In this document: positions 7,177 through 32,738 of the stretch, piece by piece | Layout: the number at the start of each line of letters is the position of its first letter | Position numbering within the stretch: the stretch's first letter is position 1 | Virus record (IMG/VR): IMGVR_UViG_3300045988_086641 | Coordinates: 1-59,175 of that record | DNA: 59,175 nt | Origin: a virus | Strand: one strand, 5' to 3' | The notes under the pieces: generated by a model | Database searches by the model: none | What the model saw: only the letters and a program-made list of their open reading frames with translations | Told to the model about the DNA's origin: nothing | Translations under genes and position numbers: made by a program

Positions 7177-9453
7177 ATGGCACTCTTTGATACTTATTCC
7201 CGAACTTCAAAAGAACTTGATAGAATGTTGAAGGAAAGAGCATTAAAGAAATCACAGAGCAAAAGAGCCTCAAAGAGCAATAACCTGTTAAATAGAATAA
7301 ATACCATAAGAGAAAGAGTTAATGAAAATCTTGGCGAGTACAAGAACGACTATGTAATATTAAAGAGCAATGAAGAAATAGAAAATTATTTCAAAAGTAT
7401 AAAAGCAAATGGAATAGCCGCAATAGATACAGAAACCACAGGATTAAACTTTTTTGAAGATGTTATAGTAGGAATATGTTTATATACAGAGGGAGAAAAA
7501 GCTTCCTATATCCCTCTTAATCATATTTCAAGTATTTATAATAAGAGGTTAGATAATCAGGCGGATATTGAATTTGTTAAAAGTAAGATGAAGGAATTAG
7601 TAGATTTGAATATTAAATTCATTTATCACAATGGTAAGTTTGATATCAATATGCTAGAAACATTCTTGGGTTCAAAAATGAATTGTCCTTATTGGGATAC
7701 ATTAGTGGCAAGTTATTTAATTACAAATGATGAATATAAAAGAAGTCTAAAAGACCAATATAGTAAATATTGTAGTCATTTAGAGAATAAGGATAAGATA
7801 GAAACCTTATCACACTTTAATGATTTATTCGAAGGATTAAGATTTGACCAGGTACCTATTGATAGTGGTTATATATATGCCGCAAGAGATGCCTGGATGA
7901 CTTATAAGCTATATGAACACCAAAAAGAATTCTTCGAGAGACCAGAAAACAAAGATATTTATAAATTGTTTATGGAGGTAGAAGTTCCATTAATACAAGT
8001 AACTGCTTCAATGCAAAGAACGGGGGTTGCTATAGATATGGAACTAGCCGATAAACTAAAAAAAGAATATGATGAAAAAATGGAGAAGGTAACTAAAGAG
8101 GTAGAAGAACTTATTTCTCAATATGAGGATAAGATAGTTAAGTATAGAATGATTCATTATAACACCAAGTTACAAAACCCAATCAATTTCAATAGTCCAG
8201 AGCAACTGGCTATATTGTTATATGATATAATAGGATGCCAAAGTGGTAACAAAGATAATCCAAGAGCCGTAGATGAGGCATCTTTAAAACATATCAATAT
8301 ACCATTGACTAATGCTATTTTAGAATATAGAACGATTAAGAAGCTATTAAGTACCTATATAGAAGCAATACCAGCTAAAATCGAAAAGGTAACTGGAAGG
8401 TTACATGCTTCTTTTAATCAAAATGGCGCTGATACAGGAAGGTTTAGTTCTTCTGACCCTAACTTACAGAATATACCTAGAGATGGAGGTATAAGATGTA
8501 TGTTCAAGGCAACCGATGGTTATTATATGGTAGGTGCCGATTATTCTCAACAAGAGCCAAGAATTCTTGCACATTTATGTGGGGATGAAAATATGATAAA
8601 TGCCTATAAAACAGGAAGAGATTTATATTCAACAATGGCAAGTTTAGCATTCCATGTTCCATATGAAGATTGTAGAGAGTTCTATCCAGATGGTACAGTA
8701 AATAAAGAAGGTAAAGCAAGAAGAAGTAGAATCAAAGCCGTAGTTTTAGGACTTATGTATGGTAGAGGAGATGCTTCTGTTGCAGAGCAATTAGGTATAA
8801 CGGTAGAAGAGGCAAGAGATTTATCTAATTCTTTATTTCAAGGATTTCCTAAAATCAAAGAGTATATAGAGAAAGCTAAAGCCGAAGCAAAGAAAACTGG
8901 TTATACAACTACCTTATGGGGTAGAAGAAGATATCTTAAATATATTCAAAAAGAAAGATATGAATATAAGTATGGAGTAAATAGACCTATAAACTTTGAC
9001 CCATTATTTGATTCAGATGAGGAAGTGGATAATGAGGTGAGCCAGAAGATAAAAGATTACTATAATGCAAAACTTGAAAAAGCATCTTATAATCAAAGAA
9101 GAAAGATTATGGAGGAGGCATTGAGTAATGGTATTATCATTGAAGATAATGGTGCTTGGTTGGCTTCAAGCGAAAGACAAGTAGTTAATGGAATTGTTCA
9201 AGGTTCGGCGGCAGATATGACAAAAAGAGCTATGGTAGCCCTTTATAATCATGAAGAGTTGAATAAATTGGGATTCCGATTACTTATGTCAGTGCATGAT
9301 GAGAATATAGGAGAATGTCCTATAGAGAATGTTAAGAGGGTAACTGAATTACTATCGGAAGTAATGATTAAAGCAAATGATAGATGTTCAGTGCCAATGA
9401 AGTGTGATGCTGAAATATCAGCTTGCTGGTATGGGGAGAGTATCCACGTATAA
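7177..9453 (+). CDS. Family A DNA polymerase with 3'-5' exonuclease domain
   Basis: Exo I 'IDTETTGL'; Pol motif A 'DYSQQEPRILAHL'; motif B 'RRSRIKAVVLGLMYG'; motif C 'VHDE'. Confidence 0.85.
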   Translation: MALFDTYSRTSKELDRMLKERALKKSQSKRASKSNNLLNRINTIRERVNENLGEYKNDYVILKSNEEIENYFKSIKANGIAAIDTETTGLNFFEDVIVGICLYTEGEKASYIPLNHISSIYNKRLDNQADIEFVKSKMKELVDLNIKFIYHNGKFDINMLETFLGSKMNCPYWDTLVASYLITNDEYKRSLKDQYSKYCSHLENKDKIETLSHFNDLFEGLRFDQVPIDSGYIYAARDAWMTYKLYEHQKEFFERPENKDIYKLFMEVEVPLIQVTASMQRTGVAIDMELADKLKKEYDEKMEKVTKEVEELISQYEDKIVKYRMIHYNTKLQNPINFNSPEQLAILLYDIIGCQSGNKDNPRAVDEASLKHINIPLTNAILEYRTIKKLLSTYIEAIPAKIEKVTGRLHASFNQNGADTGRFSSSDPNLQNIPRDGGIRCMFKATDGYYMVGADYSQQEPRILAHLCGDENMINAYKTGRDLYSTMASLAFHVPYEDCREFYPDGTVNKEGKARRSRIKAVVLGLMYGRGDASVAEQLGITVEEARDLSNSLFQGFPKIKEYIEKAKAEAKKTGYTTTLWGRRRYLKYIQKERYEYKYGVNRPINFDPLFDSDEEVDNEVSQKIKDYYNAKLEKASYNQRRKIMEEALSNGIIIEDNGAWLASSERQVVNGIVQGSAADMTKRAMVALYNHEELNKLGFRLLMSVHDENIGECPIENVKRVTELLSEVMIKANDRCSVPMKCDAEISACWYGESIHV

Positions 9454-22756: not shown

Positions 22757-22971
22757 TGGAAAAACAGGACAGAGAAATATTAGTTTTGTATTATGACAAA
22801 GAAACTAAAACTTATCACCCAGTATTACTAAACCAGTTTGAAGAAGGTGCTGTATGTTCTAAAATAACAGAAATATTTGCAGCCAAAGGATATGATTGTG
22901 TAATGGTGGATGAGAGAAATTATAGGTTATTTCGAGAGGAGAATGAGGAATGTCAAAAGGAAGAACAATAG
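22756..22971 (+). CDS. hypothetical protein
   Basis: ORF. Confidence 0.4.
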   Translation: MEKQDREILVLYYDKETKTYHPVLLNQFEEGAVCSKITEIFAAKGYDCVMVDERNYRLFREENEECQKEEQ

Positions 22972-23444
22972 TGGCATCCTTTAAAGAAAACAATGATGGA
23001 TTCAACTTCTACGAAGTGGTAGATGTATATAACAATAATAATAGTTATGTATTAAGAAAACAAGGAACAAATGATTACTACTTGTTTATTAGAAGTCTAT
23101 ATGTATTAGTAGATTTAAAAACCACTTTCAAACCAGCAGATGAGGAAGTATTGGCAAGTATAACTCATATGTGCAATACGGTTGATAGTAATTGCTTAAT
23201 GTTCTATGCCGATAGTAATTTCGTTAAGTATTCGGGTATATGGGATGATAGCGATTTAGTATCATTAAAAGAAAGATGCCTAAAGATTAAATCGGCAATG
23301 GCACAAGCTAAAGCAACTTTACAAGGAATAAAAGAACATTCCTATTATCATTATATTATAAATTGGTTCAAATATGTTTGGGTGGTTAAAAGACAGAATG
23401 CTAAATTAAAAAGAAGGTTAAAGGAGTTTAAGATATTATGGTAA
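22950..23444 (+). CDS. hypothetical protein
   Basis: ORF. Confidence 0.45.
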   Translation: MSKGRTIVASFKENNDGFNFYEVVDVYNNNNSYVLRKQGTNDYYLFIRSLYVLVDLKTTFKPADEEVLASITHMCNTVDSNCLMFYADSNFVKYSGIWDDSDLVSLKERCLKIKSAMAQAKATLQGIKEHSYYHYIINWFKYVWVVKRQNAKLKRRLKEFKILW

Positions 23445-23797
23445 AGAAATTAAAGAAGTTTGAGGTTGGGGATTTGGTGTATACTAGAGGGGATAGATGG
23501 AAAACCCCATTCGTAGTAGAGGTTATATATGGAGGGTTTATAGTAGCAGTTAATAGAAAGAGTCCTCTATTTCCTCAATTCCTATTTATAAGACCATATA
23601 GTAATGAAGTATATAGTGGTTCAAGTAGATTTCAAAAGTATGGGGTAGATACTAAATCATCAATCATTCCTTTTATTCAATCAATACATAAAGGAGAGTA
23701 TGTATTAGATAAGGATACTTGTTATCCTACCGATATGATATTAGGAGATGATTGTTTTGAACAATATGAAAGAAGGGAGCAAGTAAGATATGAATAA
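23438..23797 (+). CDS. hypothetical protein
   Basis: ORF. Confidence 0.45.
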   Translation: MVKKLKKFEVGDLVYTRGDRWKTPFVVEVIYGGFIVAVNRKSPLFPQFLFIRPYSNEVYSGSSRFQKYGVDTKSSIIPFIQSIHKGEYVLDKDTCYPTDMILGDDCFEQYERREQVRYE

Positions 23798-24410
23798 TAT
23801 GATACAAAATGATTGGGAGATTTATAAGAAGTTATTATTAAGTACTAAAAGACCAGGTATAGAGAATCTTGTTCAATGGCTAGATAATTCAGATTTCAAA
23901 GTGGCACCAGCTAGTACTAGATATCATTCTAATTATGAAGGAGGGCTATTAAAACATAGCCTTAATGTTTATGAAGAATGCACGAGACAGCAAGATTTAA
24001 TTAAATTATTCAATGTGCCAAAAGAGAGCATAATTATAACATCATTATTACATGATATATGTAAGGTTAATTACTATAAGATGGAAATGCGAAATGTTAA
24101 GAAGAATGGTGCTTGGGTACAGGAACCTTATTATACCGTTGAAGATATGTTTCCAATGGGGCACGGAGAAAAGAGCATTATAATTGCACAACAATATATT
24201 CAATTAACGGAAGTAGAAATTGCTATGATTAGAAATCATATGGGAGGATTTGTAGATACTAGTTATTTTAGTTCTAGTAATTTATTTAATAAATATCCAG
24301 AATCTCTCATATTACATATAGCCGATATGAAAGCTACTTATATATTAGAAAGTCCAGGAATGCTTGAGGATTTTAAAGCCGGATTAGATACCTATTTGAA
24401 TAAAAATTAA
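23790..24410 (+). CDS. HD-domain phosphohydrolase
   Basis: 'RYHSNYEGGLLKHSLNV', 'LLHDICK' and 'HIADM' carry the H...HD...H...D metal-ligand pattern. Confidence 0.6.
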   Translation: MNNMIQNDWEIYKKLLLSTKRPGIENLVQWLDNSDFKVAPASTRYHSNYEGGLLKHSLNVYEECTRQQDLIKLFNVPKESIIITSLLHDICKVNYYKMEMRNVKKNGAWVQEPYYTVEDMFPMGHGEKSIIIAQQYIQLTEVEIAMIRNHMGGFVDTSYFSSSNLFNKYPESLILHIADMKATYILESPGMLEDFKAGLDTYLNKN

Positions 24411-24439
24411 AAGTTTTTTAAGAAATTTTAAATTATGCC

Positions 24440-24468
24440 TTGATTTTTCCATAAAATTATCATATTAT
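24440..24468 (+). promoter_or_regulatory. Sigma-A-type promoter TTGATT-17-TATTAT within a conserved ~90-bp element (copy 1 of 2)
   Basis: The element 24405-24502 is ~80% identical to 54917-55010. Confidence 0.55.
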
Positions 24469-24502
24469 TATATCATAATTAAAAAGAGAGGAGATTTAAA
24501 AA

Positions 24503-24736
24503 ATGAAAAAAGAATTGGATTTCACTGAATTACAAAATGATATAAGAGAGGAGATATTAAATTACCTTGTATCAGGAGGAGCGGATTTAAGTAGAAAGGA
24601 CCAAGTACAAGATGCTTTAGATAGTTTCTATTCTGACACTATAGTAGATTATATGAATAGAACTGGATTACAATTAGGTTATGAAGTAAAAATAGACGAT
24701 AACGATAACATAATTGTAAACGTTTGGGAATGGTAA
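24503..24736 (+). CDS. hypothetical small acidic protein
   Basis: ORF with RBS AGAGGAG. Confidence 0.5.
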   Translation: MKKELDFTELQNDIREEILNYLVSGGADLSRKDQVQDALDSFYSDTIVDYMNRTGLQLGYEVKIDDNDNIIVNVWEW

Positions 24737-24753
24737 TTAGGAGGAGAAAGGTT

Positions 24754-25023
24754 ATGAAAATAAGAATTAACAAAGGCGCAATCGAAAGAAGATATATAGA
24801 AGATGAAATTATTGATTTCGACGGTACATTAGACGAATTAGTAGAATTTTTAGATGGTTTATATGTAGATTGTTGTGCCAATGATGAGGATGAATTAAGA
24901 ACCTTTGAAGAATGGTCAAATATATATGAAGACGAAGCAGATATAAGTGGAAGTACTATAGTATATGAAATTACAGATAATAAAGGAAATGTAATTTTCC
25001 AAGCATTTAATGAGGAGGTATAA
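24754..25023 (+). CDS. hypothetical protein
   Basis: ORF with RBS GGAGGAG. Confidence 0.45.
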   Translation: MKIRINKGAIERRYIEDEIIDFDGTLDELVEFLDGLYVDCCANDEDELRTFEEWSNIYEDEADISGSTIVYEITDNKGNVIFQAFNEEV

Positions 25024-25026
25024 AGA

Positions 25027-25221
25027 ATGAAAAGGAAAAGAAGAAGATTAAGACCTTGGGTTAAGGTTACTATGCTAACTATTGTTTGTGGATTAGTATT
25101 AGGTTTTGTATTAGTAAAAGGATTAGAAGGACTAGATAATATGTACGAAGAATGTGATAATGCTAAAGGTTATACTTGTAGTTATTACGAAGCTAGATTA
25201 TATTCAATTAGAGGAGAATAA
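25027..25221 (+). CDS. small membrane protein (one TM)
   Basis: 'VKVTMLTIVCGLVLGFVLV' hydrophobic helix after a basic N-terminus. Confidence 0.45.
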   Translation: MKRKRRRLRPWVKVTMLTIVCGLVLGFVLVKGLEGLDNMYEECDNAKGYTCSYYEARLYSIRGE

Positions 25222-25226
25222 TTAAA

Positions 25227-25556
25227 ATGGGATTGATTAGTGATTTACTTAAAGCTCACGCTGATAAGAAAAATGATTTTATATCAGAGTGGTATTGGCG
25301 GTCAAAATATAATAAATTAGAAAATGAGTTTCAAGTATTCAAAGAAACTATGCAAAGCGATTTATATAAGAAAATAGTGAAGGATTTAACTGTACCGCTA
25401 GAGATAAAAAGATTGAAGAAAACTATTGAAAGGTTAAATAACAAATGCAATTTTCTTTTAGAGGAGCGAAATAAACTATATGATGAAAATAAATTACTTA
25501 AAAAGAAAGGTGGAACAACTGAAAATGGCGAAAATGAAGGACTCTCTATTAAATAA
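25227..25556 (+). CDS. coiled-coil protein
   Basis: ORF with heptad-like charged sequence. Confidence 0.4.
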   Translation: MGLISDLLKAHADKKNDFISEWYWRSKYNKLENEFQVFKETMQSDLYKKIVKDLTVPLEIKRLKKTIERLNNKCNFLLEERNKLYDENKLLKKKGGTTENGENEGLSIK

Positions 25557-26013
25557 TTTAATAGATAGCATTGAAAAGGTAACCGAGGCAGAATCGGATA
25601 TATATGATTATTGTTCTAATCTTGATGAAATACAAAATAAAATAAGAGATATTGAACATTATTTAGAAAACCATATTATAAGTAGAAGTGGTGCTATAGA
25701 GCTAATATCTTTATTACAGCAATTAAGAATTGAACGTAGACAAATAAAACAAATGTGGGAATTATGGAATACCTATGGGTTAAATAGAGATAAACTAAAG
25801 ACTAAAGAATGGAGAGGGTTCTTGGTCCAGGAATTACATAAAAAGGATAATCAATTACAAACGGAATATAATTATAGGGCGTTTACAGAAGATTATCTAA
25901 ATGAATTAAATGAGGATAAACCTTTACCAAGAGGTAGAAAGAAGAATTTAGTAAGTTCGTATAATAATATTGAGGAGGAAAAAGATGAAGAAAATGAAAC
26001 CACAGAAGTATAA
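25525..26013 (+). CDS. hypothetical coiled-coil protein
   Basis: ORF; start uncertain (track start 25480); overlaps the preceding gene. Confidence 0.35.
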   Translation: MAKMKDSLLNNLIDSIEKVTEAESDIYDYCSNLDEIQNKIRDIEHYLENHIISRSGAIELISLLQQLRIERRQIKQMWELWNTYGLNRDKLKTKEWRGFLVQELHKKDNQLQTEYNYRAFTEDYLNELNEDKPLPRGRKKNLVSSYNNIEEEKDEENETTEV

Positions 26014-26191
26014 AAGACTTCAAGGACAAGAATGGGATTTAGTAAAAGCTAACTTTCATTTATTACATACTTATAAGAGTGATAGGGGTAACATTAAAGG
26101 AATCTATACTAATGGGGTAGATAAGGTAGCCCATTGGATGGATGAAGAAGAAAAGAAAGCATATTTAGAAAAAGAAAGGAAGGAAAAGTAA
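25985..26191 (+). CDS. hypothetical basic protein
   Basis: RBS GAGGAGG before ATG 25985. Confidence 0.4.
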   Translation: MKKMKPQKYKRLQGQEWDLVKANFHLLHTYKSDRGNIKGIYTNGVDKVAHWMDEEEKKAYLEKERKEK

Positions 26192-26192
26192 T

Positions 26193-26615
26193 ATGTTTGG
26201 AATTGGAGAAATTAAAATTAACGCAAATGGAAAGAGTAAAGAAGAAGTAAAAGAAGAAATTATGGATGAGGTTAAAAAGAAAATTGATGAAATGTTTGAA
26301 ATGAATGAAAAGATTATAAATTCTCATAAAAAATCAGAAAAGAAAGTCGAAGGACCAAAACCTGCTAAGATTTCATTAGTATTACAAGAAGATGAAGAAA
26401 AGACAGGATTCCATATAGAGACTGATATACAAGTAGAGGATTTATCTTATGAGCAATTAATGACAATGATTACAATGGGACTTGCTAATCTATTTAAACA
26501 ATTGTTTCAAGAGGATGATGCTTTTCAAGGAATGATGGCAATAACACAAATGTTCCCAGCATTGATGGATGAGTATTTCAAAGATGAGGAGGATGAAGAA
26601 GATGCTGGAGAATAA
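26193..26615 (+). CDS. Highly acidic protein (candidate DNA mimic / anti-restriction-like)
   Basis: Very high D/E content and a C-terminus 'DEEDEEDAGE'. The functional guess rests only on charge and its position in the early cluster. Confidence 0.3.
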   Translation: MFGIGEIKINANGKSKEEVKEEIMDEVKKKIDEMFEMNEKIINSHKKSEKKVEGPKPAKISLVLQEDEEKTGFHIETDIQVEDLSYEQLMTMITMGLANLFKQLFQEDDAFQGMMAITQMFPALMDEYFKDEEDEEDAGE

Positions 26616-26889
26616 ATTAAAAGCAGTTCCATTAGAAGAATTGGAATCAGAAGTAATTGAGGAATTTCCAGATATTCCAGAGGAACAACCAATGCCACAA
26701 GAACCATCAGTTGAAGAACAAATCAGAATGGCAACAGAAGAATTAGAAAGAAAGAATAATGATTTAACTCAACAAATCTATTATAAAGAACAAGAGTGTA
26801 GAGAATTAAGAGCAGCAATGCAAAGCCAAGAGGAGACTTTCAATAGAGTTATTGCTGGTCTATGTATAACAATATTTGGTGGTAGATAA
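26602..26889 (+). CDS. hypothetical acidic protein
   Basis: RBS GAGGAGG before ATG 26602. Confidence 0.35.
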   Translation: MLENKLKAVPLEELESEVIEEFPDIPEEQPMPQEPSVEEQIRMATEELERKNNDLTQQIYYKEQECRELRAAMQSQEETFNRVIAGLCITIFGGR

Positions 26890-27182
26890 TGAGAAGTAAG
26901 ATATTGTTAATACAAAAATATAGTTTACCAATTATATTAGTAATAACATTAGTAATAGCTGTATATAGTATATTTATTAGAATTGATAATAATAAATTGA
27001 AGGAGCAGAATACCCAATTAAAAGAAAAGGTAAGTTCTTTAGAAACAGAGGTAGCTGCTAAACAAGATTTAATATTAGAAAGAAACAATGAAATCTATAT
27101 ACTAAAGATGGAGAGAGATGAGTGGAGAGAATTATTCTATGCAGAAATAGATTTCCATCCATACGAAGGTCCAGATTGGTAA
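26889..27182 (+). CDS. membrane-anchored coiled-coil protein
   Basis: N-terminal TM 'LPIILVITLVIAVYSIFI' followed by coiled coil. Confidence 0.4.
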   Translation: MRSKILLIQKYSLPIILVITLVIAVYSIFIRIDNNKLKEQNTQLKEKVSSLETEVAAKQDLILERNNEIYILKMERDEWRELFYAEIDFHPYEGPDW

Positions 27183-28218
27183 AACATATAATATAAATAC
27201 ATTGGTTGTTAGTAGTAATGGCGCTTATAAACGTATAGTATACTAATGTAAAAAGGCTAAAGTAATAGGAGTACCATCCTTTTCCAATTTAATTAAGGCA
27301 TCTACCTAATGTAGTCATAGCGCTAAAGGACATGATTAGGAGAGAATAGATGTAGGTGACCAAGCGGTGTACCTGGTATAACCAATGCCAAAGCAGCTGG
27401 TAGGTAGTTTACCTATAATTAAACCGACTCTTGAGCTGGAGGACGATAGGAGAGGCAACAGTTTTGGATAGTTTAGATTTAAGAACTAGAAGGTCCTAAT
27501 TAGAGACAGGTGTGCTAATTGGATTCCTATATCCGAAATAGGTAAATTGAATTGGTTTGACTTATGGAAAGACATATATGTTAAGTTTGGCAGAGCATTC
27601 TTCGAATATCAAAAAAGCTCTGATTTTTATATCTTCTGGATACTAGGAGTATATTGAAAGACCATTGCGGAGGATGTTAACACTCAAATGTTAATCGAGT
27701 AGATGGAAAGATGGGGTATCTATTATATAATTGAGTAGTACTTATCTAGAGAGAAAGATTATATAATATTAGAGTTCAAATCTCTATCAGAAGTTTTCAT
27801 TTTTTAAAGTCCTTATCTTGTTGCTCCTTTCTATAAACTTTATTAAGTAGTTTTCTTATTCATAGAATCCAAATAAGATAAGGAAATATAACCTTTCATT
27901 ATTCCATATTATTATTGAGATACCTTTCCTCAATAATTCGAATAATGTAAAGCCTTTGTTAGATAGCGTAATGCTATCTTTTTTATATGAAAAAATCGTT
28001 TACGCGCGGAGGATGGGAAATAGGGATAATAACTATATAATATAATATAATCAAATACATAAAATATAAATATAAAGAATATATAGATAAATAGTATATA
28101 GAGATATAAGAGATATAAGTAATAGATTATATCAAAATAAATAAGAAATAGTTATAAGATAAATGTAAAAGTAAATAAGGAAATAAGTTAACTAGTTATA
28201 GGAAAGGATGGTTTTATA
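27183..28218. other. 1.04-kb ORF-free intergenic segment: GC-enriched (~40-45%) structured part (about 27200-27960) + intrinsic terminator + AT-rich low-complexity tract (28020-28200), directly upstream of terminase
   Basis: No ORF of 60 aa or more in any frame. Several stable hairpins, e.g. 27823-27888, 27911-27938 and 27403-27417. Confidence 0.6.
27961..27986 (+). terminator. Intrinsic terminator (AGATAGC/GCTATCT + T6)
   Basis: 'agatagcgtaatgctatcttttttat'. Confidence 0.6.
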
Positions 28219-29703
28219 ATGTCATTATCACTTGCTTTAAACCCTAATAATAGCAATATATTTGATAGTTTTTCCAAGTATTATAAGAGTAAGCAATTTA
28301 AAGAGCAATTACCAGCTTTAGATAACCCTAGAGAGAAAGAAATAGACCTTAATAAGATAATAGGTAAGGAATATGAATCCTTCTGGTATAGTAGAGAAAG
28401 ATATAGGGTAATTAAGGGTAGTCGAGGTAGTAAGAAATCTAAAGTAACCGCCTTATTCTATATAAGTAATATGATGGAATTTCCTGAGGCAAATCTTGTG
28501 GTAATTAGGAAGCATCTTAATACTCATAGAACAAGTACTAGAAATGATTTAATATGGGCTATAAATAGATTAGGAGTACAATATGATTGGAGTTATAGTA
28601 ATTCCGATAATGGAGAGTTAACTATAACAAGAATTAGTACAGGACAAAAGATATTCTTTAGAGGATTTGATGACCCGTTAAATATTACTTCCTTTTCAGT
28701 TGGTCATGGTATTTTATGTTGGGCTTGGTTTGAAGAAGCATTCCAAATAGAATCCGAAGAAGATTTTGATAAAGTAGATAAATCAATAAGAGGTAGAATG
28801 CCAGATGGGACTTCATTAGAAGAACATGGGTTATGGAAACAAATAACATTTACTTTTAATGCCTGGTCCGATAAATGGTGGGGTAAAAGAAGGTTCTTTG
28901 ATAAATGTCCTGATGTTAATATAACAGAAGAAGAATTAGATGAGTATAATGCGGGTAAAAGAAAAACTATAAATAAGTATGCTAGTTTACCTAAAGAATC
29001 TATATTCGTAGGAACAACTATATATGCAGCAAATGAGTTTTTAGATGAAGCAGATATTGCAGTATTTAATCTAACTAGAATTAATAACCCAATAGCATTT
29101 CAAATAGAAGGTCTTGGTAACTGGGGTATTAGTGAAGGACAGATATTTAGAAATTGGACCGTTATGGATTTCAATTATAAGGAAATAATAAGGAAATCGG
29201 TTAATATAAATGGTAAAACCAATTTAAAAATGAGATTCGGATTGGACTTTGGTTATACAAATGATGTTGCTGCCTTAATTGCTTGTATAGTGGATGAGGA
29301 TAATAAGAGAATATGGATATTTGATGAATTTTATAAGGTAGGACAAACCAACCTAATGTTAGCCGATGTTATAAGATATAAAGGATATAGCAAAGAAGTA
29401 ATAAGATGCGATAGTGCAGAGCCAAAGAGTATAGATGAATTAAAATATTATGGAATAACAAGAGCCGTTTCAGCATTAAAGGGAAAGGATAGTATTAGAC
29501 AAGGTATAGGAAGATTACAAGATTACAAGATAATAGTTCACCCAAGTTGTGAGAATACCGTTATAGAATTAAATAACTATGTGTGGAAAAAAGATAAAGA
29601 TACAGAGAAATTATTAAATGAGCCAATAGATGAATACAACCATTTAATGGATGCTTTAAGATATGCAACAGAAGGAATAAGAGTAAGAACATTTAGATTC
29701 TAA
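28219..29703 (+). CDS. Terminase large subunit (PBSX/XtmB family)
   Basis: N-terminal ATPase 'VIKGSRGSKKSKVT' (Walker A), 'LCWAWFEEAF' (Walker B), and a C-terminal nuclease region. Confidence 0.75.
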   Translation: MSLSLALNPNNSNIFDSFSKYYKSKQFKEQLPALDNPREKEIDLNKIIGKEYESFWYSRERYRVIKGSRGSKKSKVTALFYISNMMEFPEANLVVIRKHLNTHRTSTRNDLIWAINRLGVQYDWSYSNSDNGELTITRISTGQKIFFRGFDDPLNITSFSVGHGILCWAWFEEAFQIESEEDFDKVDKSIRGRMPDGTSLEEHGLWKQITFTFNAWSDKWWGKRRFFDKCPDVNITEEELDEYNAGKRKTINKYASLPKESIFVGTTIYAANEFLDEADIAVFNLTRINNPIAFQIEGLGNWGISEGQIFRNWTVMDFNYKEIIRKSVNINGKTNLKMRFGLDFGYTNDVAALIACIVDEDNKRIWIFDEFYKVGQTNLMLADVIRYKGYSKEVIRCDSAEPKSIDELKYYGITRAVSALKGKDSIRQGIGRLQDYKIIVHPSCENTVIELNNYVWKKDKDTEKLLNEPIDEYNHLMDALRYATEGIRVRTFRF

Positions 29704-29717
29704 AGGAGTAATAGATT

Positions 29718-29930
29718 ATGGTAAGGTTTATAGCAGAAACGAGAAATGAAGATAAGGTGGTATTATGCGAAGGAGATTATATAGAACTATACCAGCAACT
29801 TATGTCTTATTTCGATGAAAGTGCCAATATTAGTCGTTTTTATATAGAGAAAAACAACTACATAATAGAAGAAAAGTGGTTACGTCCTAAGGAACAACCA
29901 AAGATATTGAGGAGGAAAAAGGAATGTTAA
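29718..29930 (+). CDS. hypothetical protein
   Basis: ORF with RBS AAGGAG. Confidence 0.45.
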   Translation: MVRFIAETRNEDKVVLCEGDYIELYQQLMSYFDESANISRFYIEKNNYIIEEKWLRPKEQPKILRRKKEC

Positions 29931-30241
29931 AGAAGAAAATGGATAAAAGATGCTTAGCAATTATAAAGCATTATGGACCAAAACACCAACAAAGGAAATT
30001 AGCAGAGGAGAATTACGAATTACAGGATGCTATAACAGAGGTAGAATTAAGAGACCAAGATTATTTGGTGGAACGGCAGGAGGAATTACTAATAGATGAA
30101 ATAGCAGATAATTTAGTATTACTAGCTCAGTTTATACAATATTACAATTTGTCTATGGAGAAAATAGACGAGAGAATAGATTATAAACTAGATAGACAAG
30201 AGGAGAGGATGAGAAATGAGAGCATTTATAAAGGAGAATAA
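29924..30241 (+). CDS. MazG-like nucleotide pyrophosphohydrolase (small)
   Basis: 'LAEENYELQDAI' and 'DEIADNLVLLAQF' resemble the MazG EExxE / DxxxD helices. Confidence 0.4.
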   Translation: MLKKKMDKRCLAIIKHYGPKHQQRKLAEENYELQDAITEVELRDQDYLVERQEELLIDEIADNLVLLAQFIQYYNLSMEKIDERIDYKLDRQEERMRNESIYKGE

Positions 30242-30482
30242 ATGGGATGAGTTTAAGGAGTTATGTAGTAAGTATGGTTTTAGTGTTAGTTTAAAGAAAC
30301 CAAAACAATATTTCCAAAAAGAAATAGATGTAGATATAATGCTATTAGTTAATAAGAAAACAAGAGAACTTCTCCTTATAACACCTATGGGAGAAAGTCC
30401 TTTTATGGAAGTACATAAAGATACTTATAAGGATATCTACGATTTAGGTTATATACAATACGAAGAAGGCAGGTTTGACTAA
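30216..30482 (+). CDS. hypothetical protein
   Basis: ORF. Confidence 0.4.
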   Translation: MRAFIKENKWDEFKELCSKYGFSVSLKKPKQYFQKEIDVDIMLLVNKKTRELLLITPMGESPFMEVHKDTYKDIYDLGYIQYEEGRFD

Positions 30483-30670
30483 TGAATAAAGAGGAAAGAG
30501 AAAGGGAGAAAGAAATAAGGTATCTAATGTATTTAAAATCCCAACTCATAAAACAAACTAAAAAAGAATTATCTCTATTAAGAGAGGAGCTTAATAGTTT
30601 AGGTAATAATAAAGAAAGGAGAGAAGGATATGAAGAAGGTCCTAAAATGGTTAGAAGAAAGAAAAGATGA
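30482..30670 (+). CDS. hypothetical basic coiled-coil protein
   Basis: ORF. Confidence 0.35.
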   Translation: MNKEEREREKEIRYLMYLKSQLIKQTKKELSLLREELNSLGNNKERREGYEEGPKMVRRKKR

Positions 30671-30962
30671 AATAATGTATGGGGTTATAGCATTACTTAT
30701 AGCTCTACTAATAATGGCTATATGCTTCAGTATTCTTTTTATGGGTATTTGCGATGATTTAGTAGAAGAGGTACAAATAAGAAATGGAGAAATAGAGCAA
30801 TTAAAATATGAACGTAATTATTATTATGGTTTATATGATAGCGTAATACAGAGTTATGAAGATGCCATACCTAAACAGCAATATATAGATGATATAGAAT
30901 ATTTAGAATCTGTTATATTGCAATTAAGACAAACCTGTGGTAAGGATTGTGAAGGCATCTAA
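30630..30962 (+). CDS. membrane protein (one TM)
   Basis: 'GVIALLIALLIMAICFSILFMGI' hydrophobic helix; RBS GGAGAGAAGG. Confidence 0.4.
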   Translation: MKKVLKWLEERKDEIMYGVIALLIALLIMAICFSILFMGICDDLVEEVQIRNGEIEQLKYERNYYYGLYDSVIQSYEDAIPKQQYIDDIEYLESVILQLRQTCGKDCEGI

Positions 30963-30998
30963 TACATATAATAATTTAAAGAAAAGGAGGAAATAAAA

Positions 30999-32738
30999 AT
31001 GCCAAGTAGTAAGTCTAGTTTTGGTAAGAATTCTACGTTAAATAATAATCTTGGTGGAGAACAGATTACTTATATAAGACCTGATGAACCACAAGCAGTA
31101 AAAGATACCATAGAAACTTACAATGTTAGTGCTAATAATATAGAAGTAGATAAATTAGTACAAGCCGTATTTGATGAATGGGAGAATAGCAAAGAAAGAA
31201 AGCTAATGTTAGATGGAATAGCATATTATGATAATGAAACACCAATTGATAAAAAGGTAAGATATGACCATTGTGGAACAGATGGAGCTATAAACGATAA
31301 ATTATCTAATGCTAAAATGCATAAGAATATAATGCGTAAACTAACAAGACAAAAAGTTAACACCTTATTAGGTAAGCCTTACAGCATAAAAACAGATAAT
31401 GAAAATTATAAACAAATATTAGAAGATGAATATTTCAACAAATATATGTATAGGAAAGTATTTAACACAGCAAAAGAATCCATAAAAGAAGGAATAAACT
31501 GGTTAAACGTATATTATGATGAAAATGGCACTTTATGTTTTAGAAGAGTTCCAGGAAATCAAGTTAGGGTGTTCTGGGATGATAGAGAACATACTAAAAT
31601 AGCTCAACTTATTCATTATTATGATATAGTAGTATATAAAGGAAGCGAATCTAAAACTTCTACTTACGCTGATTATTATAGTAGGAATGGGGTTATTCAT
31701 TATGTAAGAGAGAGTGAGGGCTTTGTTAGGGATAAAGAAAGATTAGCCGAAGAAGGAAACTTTACCTTAATGGTACCTCAAACAGAAGATATTAAAAATG
31801 ATAAAGGAGAAGTAGTAGAAACTACCTATAAATTAGATGAGGATGGAAACATTATATTTGAACCACAGCAAATGGTTTGGGATAGAATACCTTGGGTGCC
31901 TTTAAAATATAATGAAGAAGAAACAAGTTTACTAAAATACATTAAGGCATATCAAGATGCTTATGAAAAAGTATTTAGTGCAGCAGTAGATGTAATTATA
32001 GATATTCCAAATGCTATTAAAGTATTTAAAGGATATGCTGGTGCAGACCTAGGAGAATTAACTACAAATATTGCTAAATATAGAGCAGTATTAGTAGACC
32101 CTGATGGGGATGCCAATACATTAGAAACAGATTTCAATATAGATGTATTTGATAAGTTATTAGATAGAATTAGAAAAGACGCCTACGAAGATGGTGGCGG
32201 AGTAGATATGCAATCCGACAGAACTGGAGATAAGAGTGGAGTAGGATTAAAGTTCTTATATTCAGATTTAGATTTAGACCTAGAAGAGCTAGAGCAAGAA
32301 ATGGATGTATTCTTTGAATGGCTATTATGGTTTATAGATTACGATATTAGAATGAAACATGGATTAGATTTCGAGGAAGAAGAAGTAACATTCCAATTCA
32401 ATAAAACTAATATAGTAAATGAATCAGAATTGATTTCTATGATAAATAGTTCAAGAGATATGATTCCTGATAGTATATTATTACCAAGACATCCATTCGT
32501 AGAAGATGTTTCAGAAGTAGAAGAAGCTATAGAAGAACAAAGAGTAGCAGAGGAAGAAGAAATGCAAAAACAAATGGAAATGTATGGTAATAGTCCAATA
32601 ATGGCAAATACTACCGGAAGTAAACTACCTAAAGTAACAGCAAATAGTAATAGTAAGCCATCTAGTAATAAAACTAATAACAATAATAAGAAAGATGAGA
32701 AGAAAGACCAGAAAGCTAAAAGTAATACCAATAGCTAG
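30999..32738 (+). CDS. Portal protein
   Basis: ~580 aa, positioned between TerL and the Mu-F-like gene; acidic C-terminal tail. Positional call. Confidence 0.55.
   Translation: MPSSKSSFGKNSTLNNNLGGEQITYIRPDEPQAVKDTIETYNVSANNIEVDKLVQAVFDEWENSKERKLMLDGIAYYDNETPIDKKVRYDHCGTDGAINDKLSNAKMHKNIMRKLTRQKVNTLLGKPYSIKTDNENYKQILEDEYFNKYMYRKVFNTAKESIKEGINWLNVYYDENGTLCFRRVPGNQVRVFWDDREHTKIAQLIHYYDIVVYKGSESKTSTYADYYSRNGVIHYVRESEGFVRDKERLAEEGNFTLMVPQTEDIKNDKGEVVETTYKLDEDGNIIFEPQQMVWDRIPWVPLKYNEEETSLLKYIKAYQDAYEKVFSAAVDVIIDIPNAIKVFKGYAGADLGELTTNIAKYRAVLVDPDGDANTLETDFNIDVFDKLLDRIRKDAYEDGGGVDMQSDRTGDKSGVGLKFLYSDLDLDLEELEQEMDVFFEWLLWFIDYDIRMKHGLDFEEEEVTFQFNKTNIVNESELISMINSSRDMIPDSILLPRHPFVEDVSEVEEAIEEQRVAEEEEMQKQMEMYGNSPIMANTTGSKLPKVTANSNSKPSSNKTNNNNKKDEKKDQKAKSNTNS

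Follow-up and report, generated by a model that had tools for sequence, protein, structure and literature searches.

The large ornate RNAs GOLLD and ROOL are encoded by phages and prophages, often near tRNA islands; they form RNA-only nanocages, and their function is unknown (PMC12286853, PMC5737381). RNAs of this type are among the least understood natural RNAs, and few classes are known. We describe here a 1036-nt stretch free of open reading frames (ORFs), positions 27183-28218 of IMG/VR record IMGVR_UViG_3300045988_086641, which is a segment of the genome of an uncultivated tailed phage. The whole record, 59,175 nt, is called the window below, and all coordinates are given on it. The gap lies immediately upstream of TerL and encodes, on its + strand, three structured RNAs, designated modules A, B, and C, that occur independently of one another in related phages. 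The three are supported by covariation and are absent from Rfam 15.

Several other systems invite comparison. OLE RNA (RF01071) has, to our knowledge, been described from chromosomes of anaerobic or extremophilic Firmicutes with oap genes, not from phages. Modules that resemble or mimic tRNA include MALAT1/mascRNA, the bacterial Y-RNA-like YrlA, and the tRNA-like domain of tmRNA. Promoter-proximal RNAs that modify RNA polymerase in cis include the put RNA of phage HK022 and the EAR and LoaP leaders. In packaging of the phi29 type, where a structured RNA (pRNA) takes part, the ATPase is a different, smaller one and the DNA is protein-primed. SPP1 packages by headful, and its pac site is built of repeated boxes.

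All genes of the ~59-kb segment (~31% GC) lie on the + strand. The gap is by far the largest in the window, the next largest + strand intergenic gap in the ORF list being ~210 nt. The upstream ORF stops at 27182; TerL, with domains Terminase_3 (PF04466) and Terminase_3C (PF17288), begins at 28219, and an SPP1-type portal gene lies downstream of it at 30999. An earlier interpretation made from the letters alone, the sequence-only reading, had reported that no ORF of at least 60 aa occurs in the gap and had proposed a structured non-coding RNA there. Both statements hold: no ORF exceeds 40 aa on the - strand or 36 aa on the + strand, and the RNA is borne out, on the + strand, by covariation. Nor does the gap conceal a gene in an unusual code, since neither read-through of any one stop codon nor alternative genetic codes yields a gene-sized ORF in it.

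Relatives were fetched by TerL, which is 70-87% identical at the amino acid level in IMG/VR and up to 99% identical in metagenomes. In all close relatives, positions 27183-27293 are ~80-92% identical, against ~68-78% for the flanking genes. Module A, which occupies most of this block, is ~90% identical across relatives, against ~70-78% for flanking coding sequence. Its fold, derived with RNAalifold from nine distinct sequences, has 16 pairs, six of them with compensatory changes. P1 occurs as UUGG/CCAA, AUGG/CCAU, and UCGG/CCGA; P2 as GUUAGU/ACUAAU, CCUAGU/ACUAGG, CAUAGU/ACUAUG, and GUUAGU/GCUAAC, so that, for example, GU/UA becomes CG/CG and CG/AU. P3 varies among C-G, U-A, and A-U, and P5 between G-C and C-G. 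The unpaired stretches AGUAAUGG, UAUAAAC, GUAAAAAGG, and AGUAAUAGG are almost invariant. A covariance model of A, R1, detects a single copy in each genome, at 105-118 bits, and does so in this lineage only; the R1 search did not find A in the lineage whose TerL is 70% identical or in 60 unrelated viral loci. Whatever cargo comes after it, A is the constant first element in all close relatives examined.

Module B has four members, namely the window and the relatives L084, L021, and L090; no further members were found in IMG/VR. In their alignment, invariant blocks alternate with helices that have changed on both sides, at ~67% identity between lineages. Over the 64 pairs predicted by RNAalifold, 96.5% of alignment cells can pair, against 85% in shuffled alignments and 33-38% in controls with the strands slid out of register. 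Double-sided changes occur at 20 pairs; the figure is 11.3 (sd 2.0) for the shuffled alignments (0/500) and 2-4 for the slid controls. The long-range helix of B covaries at six of its seven pairs (AACCAAU/AUUGGUU, GUGAUAA/UUAUCAC, GGAAUA/UAUUCU). Pattern searches of IMG/VR for more copies of B (TAGGTGA..CGGTGTACCT) and of C (GGATGCTAGGAGTA) gave, beyond the known relatives, chance or coding matches only; two apparent members, L044 and L094, were rejected as chance matches in coding sequence.

Module C is tRNA-like: a 7-bp acceptor stem is stacked on a 5-bp T stem with a loop of the form UUCRANY, and these elements covary. Compared with L007, L084, and L008, seven of its 15 pairs show compensatory changes; pairing is kept in 96.7% of cells, a share that drops to 33-50% once the strands are slid. 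The acceptor is found as CUUCUGG/UCAGAAG, CUUCCGG/UCGGAAG, and CCUUCGG/UCGAAGG, and the T stem as UAGAG/CUCUA, CAGAG/CUCUG, and CUAGG/CCUAG. A strict scan for a T arm joined to a 7-bp acceptor on both strands (118 kb scanned) finds C as the only site in the window. The place of the anticodon arm is taken by ~100 nt that vary between lineages, and CCA is not encoded. ARAGORN reports nothing for C at default settings; under relaxed settings it recovers both the acceptor and the T arm, but with a 70-nt "intron" between the halves and with D and anticodon stems that are poor. By the models, C is neither a tRNA nor a tmRNA nor a YrlA. In the window, ARAGORN at default finds 0 tRNA genes and RF00005 has no match; for tmRNA, ARAGORN is negative and the sole model match is a chance-level one to mt-tmRNA (E = 8.5); the YrlA model (RF02553) gives nothing at E <= 10 in 27000-28400. 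Besides matching no model, C differs from these RNAs in that it lacks an anticodon arm, a tag ORF, and a G3-U70 pair and has no rsr gene beside it. It resembles such tRNA mimics in keeping the tRNA elbow (acceptor, T arm, T loop, and the GG of the D loop), and it lies directly 3' of a larger RNA, as mascRNA does. Weak YrlA-like matches were seen only in two unrelated contigs, L092 and L047.

Table 1. Features of the ORF-free region and of the start of TerL, with the basis or details of each.
Feature	Position	Strand	Basis or details
-10-like element CATATAAT	27185-27192 (TATAAT 27187-27192)	+	conserved; putative promoter element
Module A, three-way-junction RNA, 93 nt	27200-27292	+	conservation, covariation
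A, helix P1	27201-05/27284-88		
A, helix P2	27208-13/27242-47		
A, helix P3	27221-23/27232-34		
A, helix P5	27268-69/27274-75		
Module B, ornate RNA, ~336 nt	27297-27632	+	covariation; 38% GC, 12 predicted helices
B, long-range helix	27380-86/27551-57		closes multi-hairpin domain
B, hairpin GAC-U-UAUG-GAAAGA-CAUA-U-AUG	27559-27580	+	directly 3' of long-range helix
B, terminal hairpin	27591-96/27617-22		
Module C, tRNA-like RNA, ~160 nt	27633-27794	+	ARAGORN relaxed, covariation
C, acceptor	27633-39/27787-93		7 bp
C, D-like hairpin ACU-AGG-AGU	27642-50		3-bp stem, AGG loop
C, T arm	27770-74/27782-86		loop UUCAAAU
C, discriminator	27794		U
AT-rich trailer	27795-27960	+	sequence; 25% GC
Trailer, inverted repeat	27810-22/27872-84		
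Trailer, conserved block CUCCUUUCUA	27824-27833		
Trailer, hairpin	27911-19/27929-37		
Trailer, conserved block GUAAAGCCUUU	27947-57		
Intrinsic terminator ending the RNA cassette	27961-27986	+	8-pair stem, 3-nt loop, T run; covaries
CGCG box ACGCGCGGAGGAUGGGAA	28002-19	+	candidate late promoter/regulator site
Three overlapping TATAAT hexamers	28036-51	+	candidate late promoter/regulator site, with the CGCG box
TerL leader	28052-28218	+	sequence; AT-rich (~20% GC), ATATA/ATAAG low-complexity repeats
TerL Shine-Dalgarno GGAAAGGA	28200-08	+	

The compensatory changes that a structured RNA predicts were thus found in A, B, and C alike on alignment with related phages. G-U pairs, several of them conserved in B, and the orientation of the terminator behind the modules fix the strand as +. 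This terminator had already been recognized in the sequence-only reading; its stem (27961-27979) precedes the T run and covaries in relatives (AGAUAGC/GCUAUCU, AGAUGG/CCAUCU, GGUAUGG/CCAUACC).

The relatives show a mosaic organization. L001, L002, and L003 represent a type without 27294-27888: they have A without B or C, and in the L001 type ~190 nt of other sequence come after A. Positions 27889-28118 are common to the three at ~75% identity, the match in L003 running on to 28179. Positions 27346-27581 are 67% identical to L005 and 27693-27782 are 85% identical to L007; L007 and L008 have C without B. A directly precedes B in the window and in the circular contig 080759 (ends joined, 55-nt overlap), which has the module order of the window plus one small inserted gene. 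Contig 156714, whose ends do not overlap, shows that order across its two ends, together with several inserted genes, and there a tRNA-like gene and a terminator-like hairpin sit between A and B. In contig 149079 a 100-nt hairpin follows A, and then comes B. Elsewhere A is followed by large RNAs of other kinds, by additional tRNA-like genes, or by genes for small proteins, and tRNA or tRNA-like genes lie directly 3' of B-type or other large RNAs in L005, L007, and L008.

Two of these arrangements deserve separate mention. In L007 (2873-3260) and L008 (873-1170), an ORF-free stretch of other sequence, ~300-400 nt long and ending at a tRNA-like gene, comes after A; the part shared by the two is 90% identical, and the stretch is possibly another large cargo RNA. 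The tRNA-like genes of the relatives (L005 3196-3290; L007 3270-3352 and 3810-3876; L008 1374-1440; L090 ~8470-8570 and 9024-9150) score 33-43 bits with the Rfam tRNA model and are not seen by ARAGORN; in some, the region of the anticodon loop is greatly enlarged, as in L005, with a 17-nt loop on a 5-bp stem.

A more distant relative shows another arrangement. In L010, with a TerL 70% identical to that of the window, the equivalent locus holds the 3' 119 nt of OLE RNA (57.1 bits, gathering score 50). The match covers model positions 497-616 and is truncated where the contig stops. A is lacking there, and downstream of OLE come a terminator and then the same CGCG box that precedes TerL in the window. 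L010 1-119 corresponds to L045 13095-13213 (- strand) of contig IMGVR_UViG_3300045988_050254. L033, a sister of L010, is 96% identical from nt 112 on and lacks OLE; the window itself has no match to the OLE model. Because an OLE 3' end occupies the same position in L010 and is missing from its sister L033, the locus is a slot for different large structured RNAs, and closely related phages swap such RNAs into one slot behind the constant leader A.

We regard as probable that the gap is an RNA cassette set between early/middle genes and the late packaging operon, with transcription, processing, and roles along the following lines. The cassette would be transcribed as one ~790-nt precursor, starting either at the -10-like element 27187-92 or by read-through from upstream. 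The element CATATAAT stands right after the stop codon of the upstream gene, 8 nt before A; it is kept as CATAT[A/T]AT in an alignment of seven relatives, and contig 156714, which has a different upstream gene, carries a TATAAA-like element at the same distance from A. A could serve any cargo as a cis-acting, promoter-proximal leader, by transcript protection or by processive antitermination across structures of the hairpin/U-run kind. In this A would be comparable to put, EAR, and LoaP: it is small, conserved, and multi-stemmed, and it stands at the start of the cassette, ahead of terminator-like hairpins and differing cargos. The comparison is one of analogy only, as A has no sequence or structural match to those RNAs.

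C appears to retain the tRNA parts seen by RNase P, RNase Z, and the CCA-adding enzyme, that is, the acceptor/T-arm stack, the T loop, and the GG of the D loop. Because exactly these parts are kept, C may act as a processing signal that frees B with a defined 3' end and itself becomes a stable tRNA-like RNA. During infection B would then be a trans-acting, compact scaffold RNA of the general kind of GOLLD and ROOL, and its conserved GGAAAGAC hairpin would be where a protein or another RNA docks. The AT tract behind the terminator, in turn, would be the late-promoter and leader region of TerL rather than a part of the RNA. The cassette supplies concrete sequences for structural work and for work on RNase P processing, and the natural exchange of cargos provides a comparison for a role in infection.

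Several observations weigh against this account. The relatives of the L001 type manage without B and C, so that both are dispensable for the phage. The -10-like element has no good -35 partner and is missed by a sigma-70 scan. Support for B comes from four sequences, two of them close, and its structure was scored on the alignment from which it was derived; support for C likewise comes from four sequences. The interior of C partly resembles the promoter box of TerL, and some of its conservation could lie at the DNA level. The minimum free energy of 27200-27800 (+ strand) is -131.8 kcal/mol, against -133.4 (sd 6.4) for shuffled sequences (z = +0.25). Finally, the cassette is known from its sequence, and it is from this that its processing by RNase P and RNase Z, like all of its proposed functions, is deduced.

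The folding energy also bears on the earlier argument for structure. The sequence-only reading had called the region hairpin-dense, which does not exceed chance, and had put its GC content at 40-45% over 27200-27960. GC is raised only in 27297-27632 (38.1%; 336-nt windows across the whole record average 31.2%, sd 3.1), peaks within the gap at 41.5% in a single 200-nt window, is 25-30% in 27700-27960, and over the entire gap is 29.4%, under the window mean. GC and hairpin counts therefore fail as an argument for structure; the structural evidence is covariation, not composition or folding energy. The individual stems that had been listed do exist, two of them at coordinates wrong by 5-10 nt: CCTAT/ATAGG lies at 27526-27542, and CCTTATCTT/AAGATAAGG at 27811-27819 and 27875-27883. 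The stem TAGGTA/TACCTA competes with a covarying helix, 27407-11/27420-24, and is probably not used. A search of the gap for tandem or CRISPR-like repeats returned only low-complexity AT repeats.

The sequence-only reading had proposed one ~0.8-kb RNA of the GOLLD/ROOL class over 27200-27986, of which A, B, and C would be domains. The arrangement in the window agrees with this, as the three are contiguous on one strand, 4-10 nt apart, between the -10-like element and a single terminator. GOLLD, moreover, combines a 5' part that varies with a 3' part that is conserved, and tRNAs occasionally lie in its linker (PMC12286853); the order A, tRNA-like gene, B in contig 156714 may be compared with this. 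The modules are, however, distributed independently in relatives, with A found without B or C and C without B; the terminator-like hairpin of contig 156714 splits A from B; and pairing between modules over long range is neither predicted nor seen to covary. Nor does any Rfam family, GOLLD and ROOL included, match at its gathering score in the window or at E <= 1 in 27000-28400, where the best hit (E = 1.8) belongs among chance-level snoRNA or plastid families. For GOLLD there is no match at E <= 10 in 27000-28400. A search of the window with the ROOL env-120 sequence by nhmmer gave nothing at E <= 1, a weak test given that the same approach with OLE missed L010. A single giant RNA is therefore disfavored, and we consider it unlikely.

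What stands of the comparison with GOLLD and ROOL is a likeness of kind, and family membership is dropped. Like them, B is a phage non-coding RNA of several hundred nucleotides with many helices (at least 12, with 20 compensatory pairs), in a TerL/portal context, without an associated protein gene and with a tRNA-like gene adjacent, C being directly 3' of it; in both cases a tRNA or tRNA-like gene may stand between or after domains. In contrast to them, B has no sequence or covariance-model similarity to either, is smaller (~336 nt), and is known from four genomes only. The gap as a whole has zero blastn matches among 50,697 GenBank phage records. TerL, used to seek a host by way of prophages, has zero relatives among 185,579 species genomes.

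B also leads to a more widespread RNA class, confined to viral contigs, with which it shares an exact 22-nt hairpin. The hairpin GACUUAUGGAAAGACAUAUAUG (22-24 nt) is common to B and to a different RNA of ~400-450 nt. An 18-mer from it, GACTTATGGAAAGACATA, occurs in 49 IMG/VR contigs; bacterial and archaeal genomes, 596 Gb in all, contain it only 13 times, mostly in what appears to be coding sequence (DLWKDI). About 36 of the 49 contigs carry one common class of ~400-450-nt RNA, usually beside tRNA arrays (loci L047-L092, e.g. L058 3129-3374 and L049 5304-5549, both - strand), with TTGACA and TATAAT promoter-like sequences upstream in many contigs and with evident covarying hairpins. The class has no match in Rfam 15 or among the GenBank phage records and was not seen in the 185,579 species genomes; it seems to be a class of large phage RNA not described so far. 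A profile of it aligns to B over the 24-nt hairpin only, and the local architecture is the same in both: the 3' strand of a domain-closing helix, 1-3 nt, the hairpin, and then a hairpin with an A-rich loop. Tandem variants in other contigs, GUUG-GAAAGA-CAAC, support a stem with a GAAAGA loop. The motif does not appear in the published constructs ROOL env-120 and GOLLD env-38 or in that of OLE.

Tandem hairpins of the form GAC-N-stem-GAAAGA-stem, such as GACUUAUGGAAAGACAUAUGACUGUUGGAAAGACAAC, were also seen in L053, L071, and L087 (a contig from a metagenome-assembled genome of a giant virus). The recurrence of the form suggests a docking hairpin for protein or RNA used by several unrelated viral RNAs.

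A more far-reaching version of the cassette reading, which we offer tentatively and rather doubt, would make A, B, and C undescribed RNA classes in a dedicated RNA expression slot, in which A loads or protects interchangeable cargos. B and the ~400-450-nt class would then form a virus-only superfamily built around the GAC-U-UAUG-GAAAGA-CAUA hairpin and acting on the tRNA or translation machinery of the host. At the hairpin, a factor of the host or of the phage would dock, or one RNA would contact another during assembly.

Other identities that were considered were rejected. A likeness of B to RNase P, in which GAAGGUCC resembles CR-I and GACUUAUGG CR-V, was discounted because the elements stand in the wrong order, Rfam gives no RNase P match, and the likeness fails in the other RNA class; the motif of the proposed P4 is invariant. 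An 11-nt GAAA-tetraloop receptor (CCUAAU with UAUGG) was discarded because the flanking helices are unpaired, and a group I intron, suggested by Q/R/S-like strings, because there is no P7 complementarity, Rfam match, or interrupted gene. A divergent OLE was also set aside: the likeness is limited to U-GAC-UAUGG, no model matches, and the OLE of C. acetobutylicum is otherwise unlike B. For A, an anti-Shine-Dalgarno regulator of TerL was rejected as non-specific. Positions 27273-27282, in the conserved 3' part of A, are a perfect 10-nt complement of 28203-28212 in the Shine-Dalgarno region of TerL; this complementarity is not conserved, the sequences at TerL differing among relatives, and TerL ranks only 4th of 89 genes in duplex energy.

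A role at the DNA level, as a pac or cos site, in late-gene control, or both, would make the GCGGAGGATG boxes and the AT tract sites for terminase or a regulator and the RNA folds secondary; we think this quite improbable for the gap as a whole. The region does abut TerL, and Pfam and PHROGs searches of the ~5 kb to each side of it (22950-32738) recognized no small terminase subunit (TerS). Terminase_3 and the SPP1-type portal belong to families found in headful-packaging phages such as SPP1. The exact 10-mer GCGGAGGATG occurs twice, inside C (27667-27676) and in the CGCG box (28006-28015), 339 nt apart and nowhere else in the 59 kb; allowing up to one mismatch, there are five sites against 0.75 expected. 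About 30 nt around the two copies are 70-78% alike (repeats D1 and D2), and the pair could be a shared regulator site, a terminase site, or a duplicated promoter. The CGCG box, with consensus CGCG(Y)GG(R)RAAAG, lies ~190-215 nt before TerL in all relatives, including the 70% lineage (L010), and stays beside TerL where extra genes are inserted after the RNA cassette. Protein-DNA sites do not, however, explain compensatory changes that preserve pairing in A, B, and C, which mark a constraint on RNA. The CGCG box stands ~20 nt upstream of the TATAAT repeats, as in a promoter, so that the two together look more like a late promoter than like pac or cos, and contig ends of relatives fall at differing places, with no hint of a fixed terminus. 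The AT tract before TerL had been noted earlier as a candidate packaging site; the tract itself is there (19-21% GC over ~27987-28218, with low-complexity short repeats), and a pac or cos role for 27987-28218 alone, alongside the RNA cassette, is possible.

With no TerS recognizable and A universal in the lineage and next to TerL, A might even help to initiate packaging, a variant to which we give next to no credence. Phi29 pRNA may be compared with the RNAs of the gap, as another structured phage RNA; here the packaging ATPase gene is adjacent and TerS is not recognizable. The pRNA model (RF00044), however, matches nowhere in the window, the terminase and portal of this phage are of the Terminase_3/Terminase_3C and SPP1 types, and B and C are absent from close relatives. 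Decaying DNA, with remnants of a tRNA gene, a lost small terminase, or a mobile element, would agree with the high variability among close relatives, some lacking B and C, with a C that is not a decoding tRNA, and with the unexceptional folding energy, and is very improbable given that A is more conserved than the neighbouring genes, that helices are kept by double substitutions where B is only ~67% identical, that no ORF remnant exists in any code, and that the same hairpin module is exact in dozens of unrelated viral contigs.

Two minor features complete the region. Between C and the terminator, CUCCUUUCUA and (U)GUAAAACCUUU (the GUAAA(A/G)CCUUU block) are kept in relatives despite differing surroundings, CUCCUUUCUA being conserved in the trailers of five of them; it is identical to the anti-Shine-Dalgarno region at the 3' end of Firmicute 16S rRNA. 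The stretch from TerL to the portal gene contains a MazG-like gene (29924-30241) and several small ORFs that match nothing.

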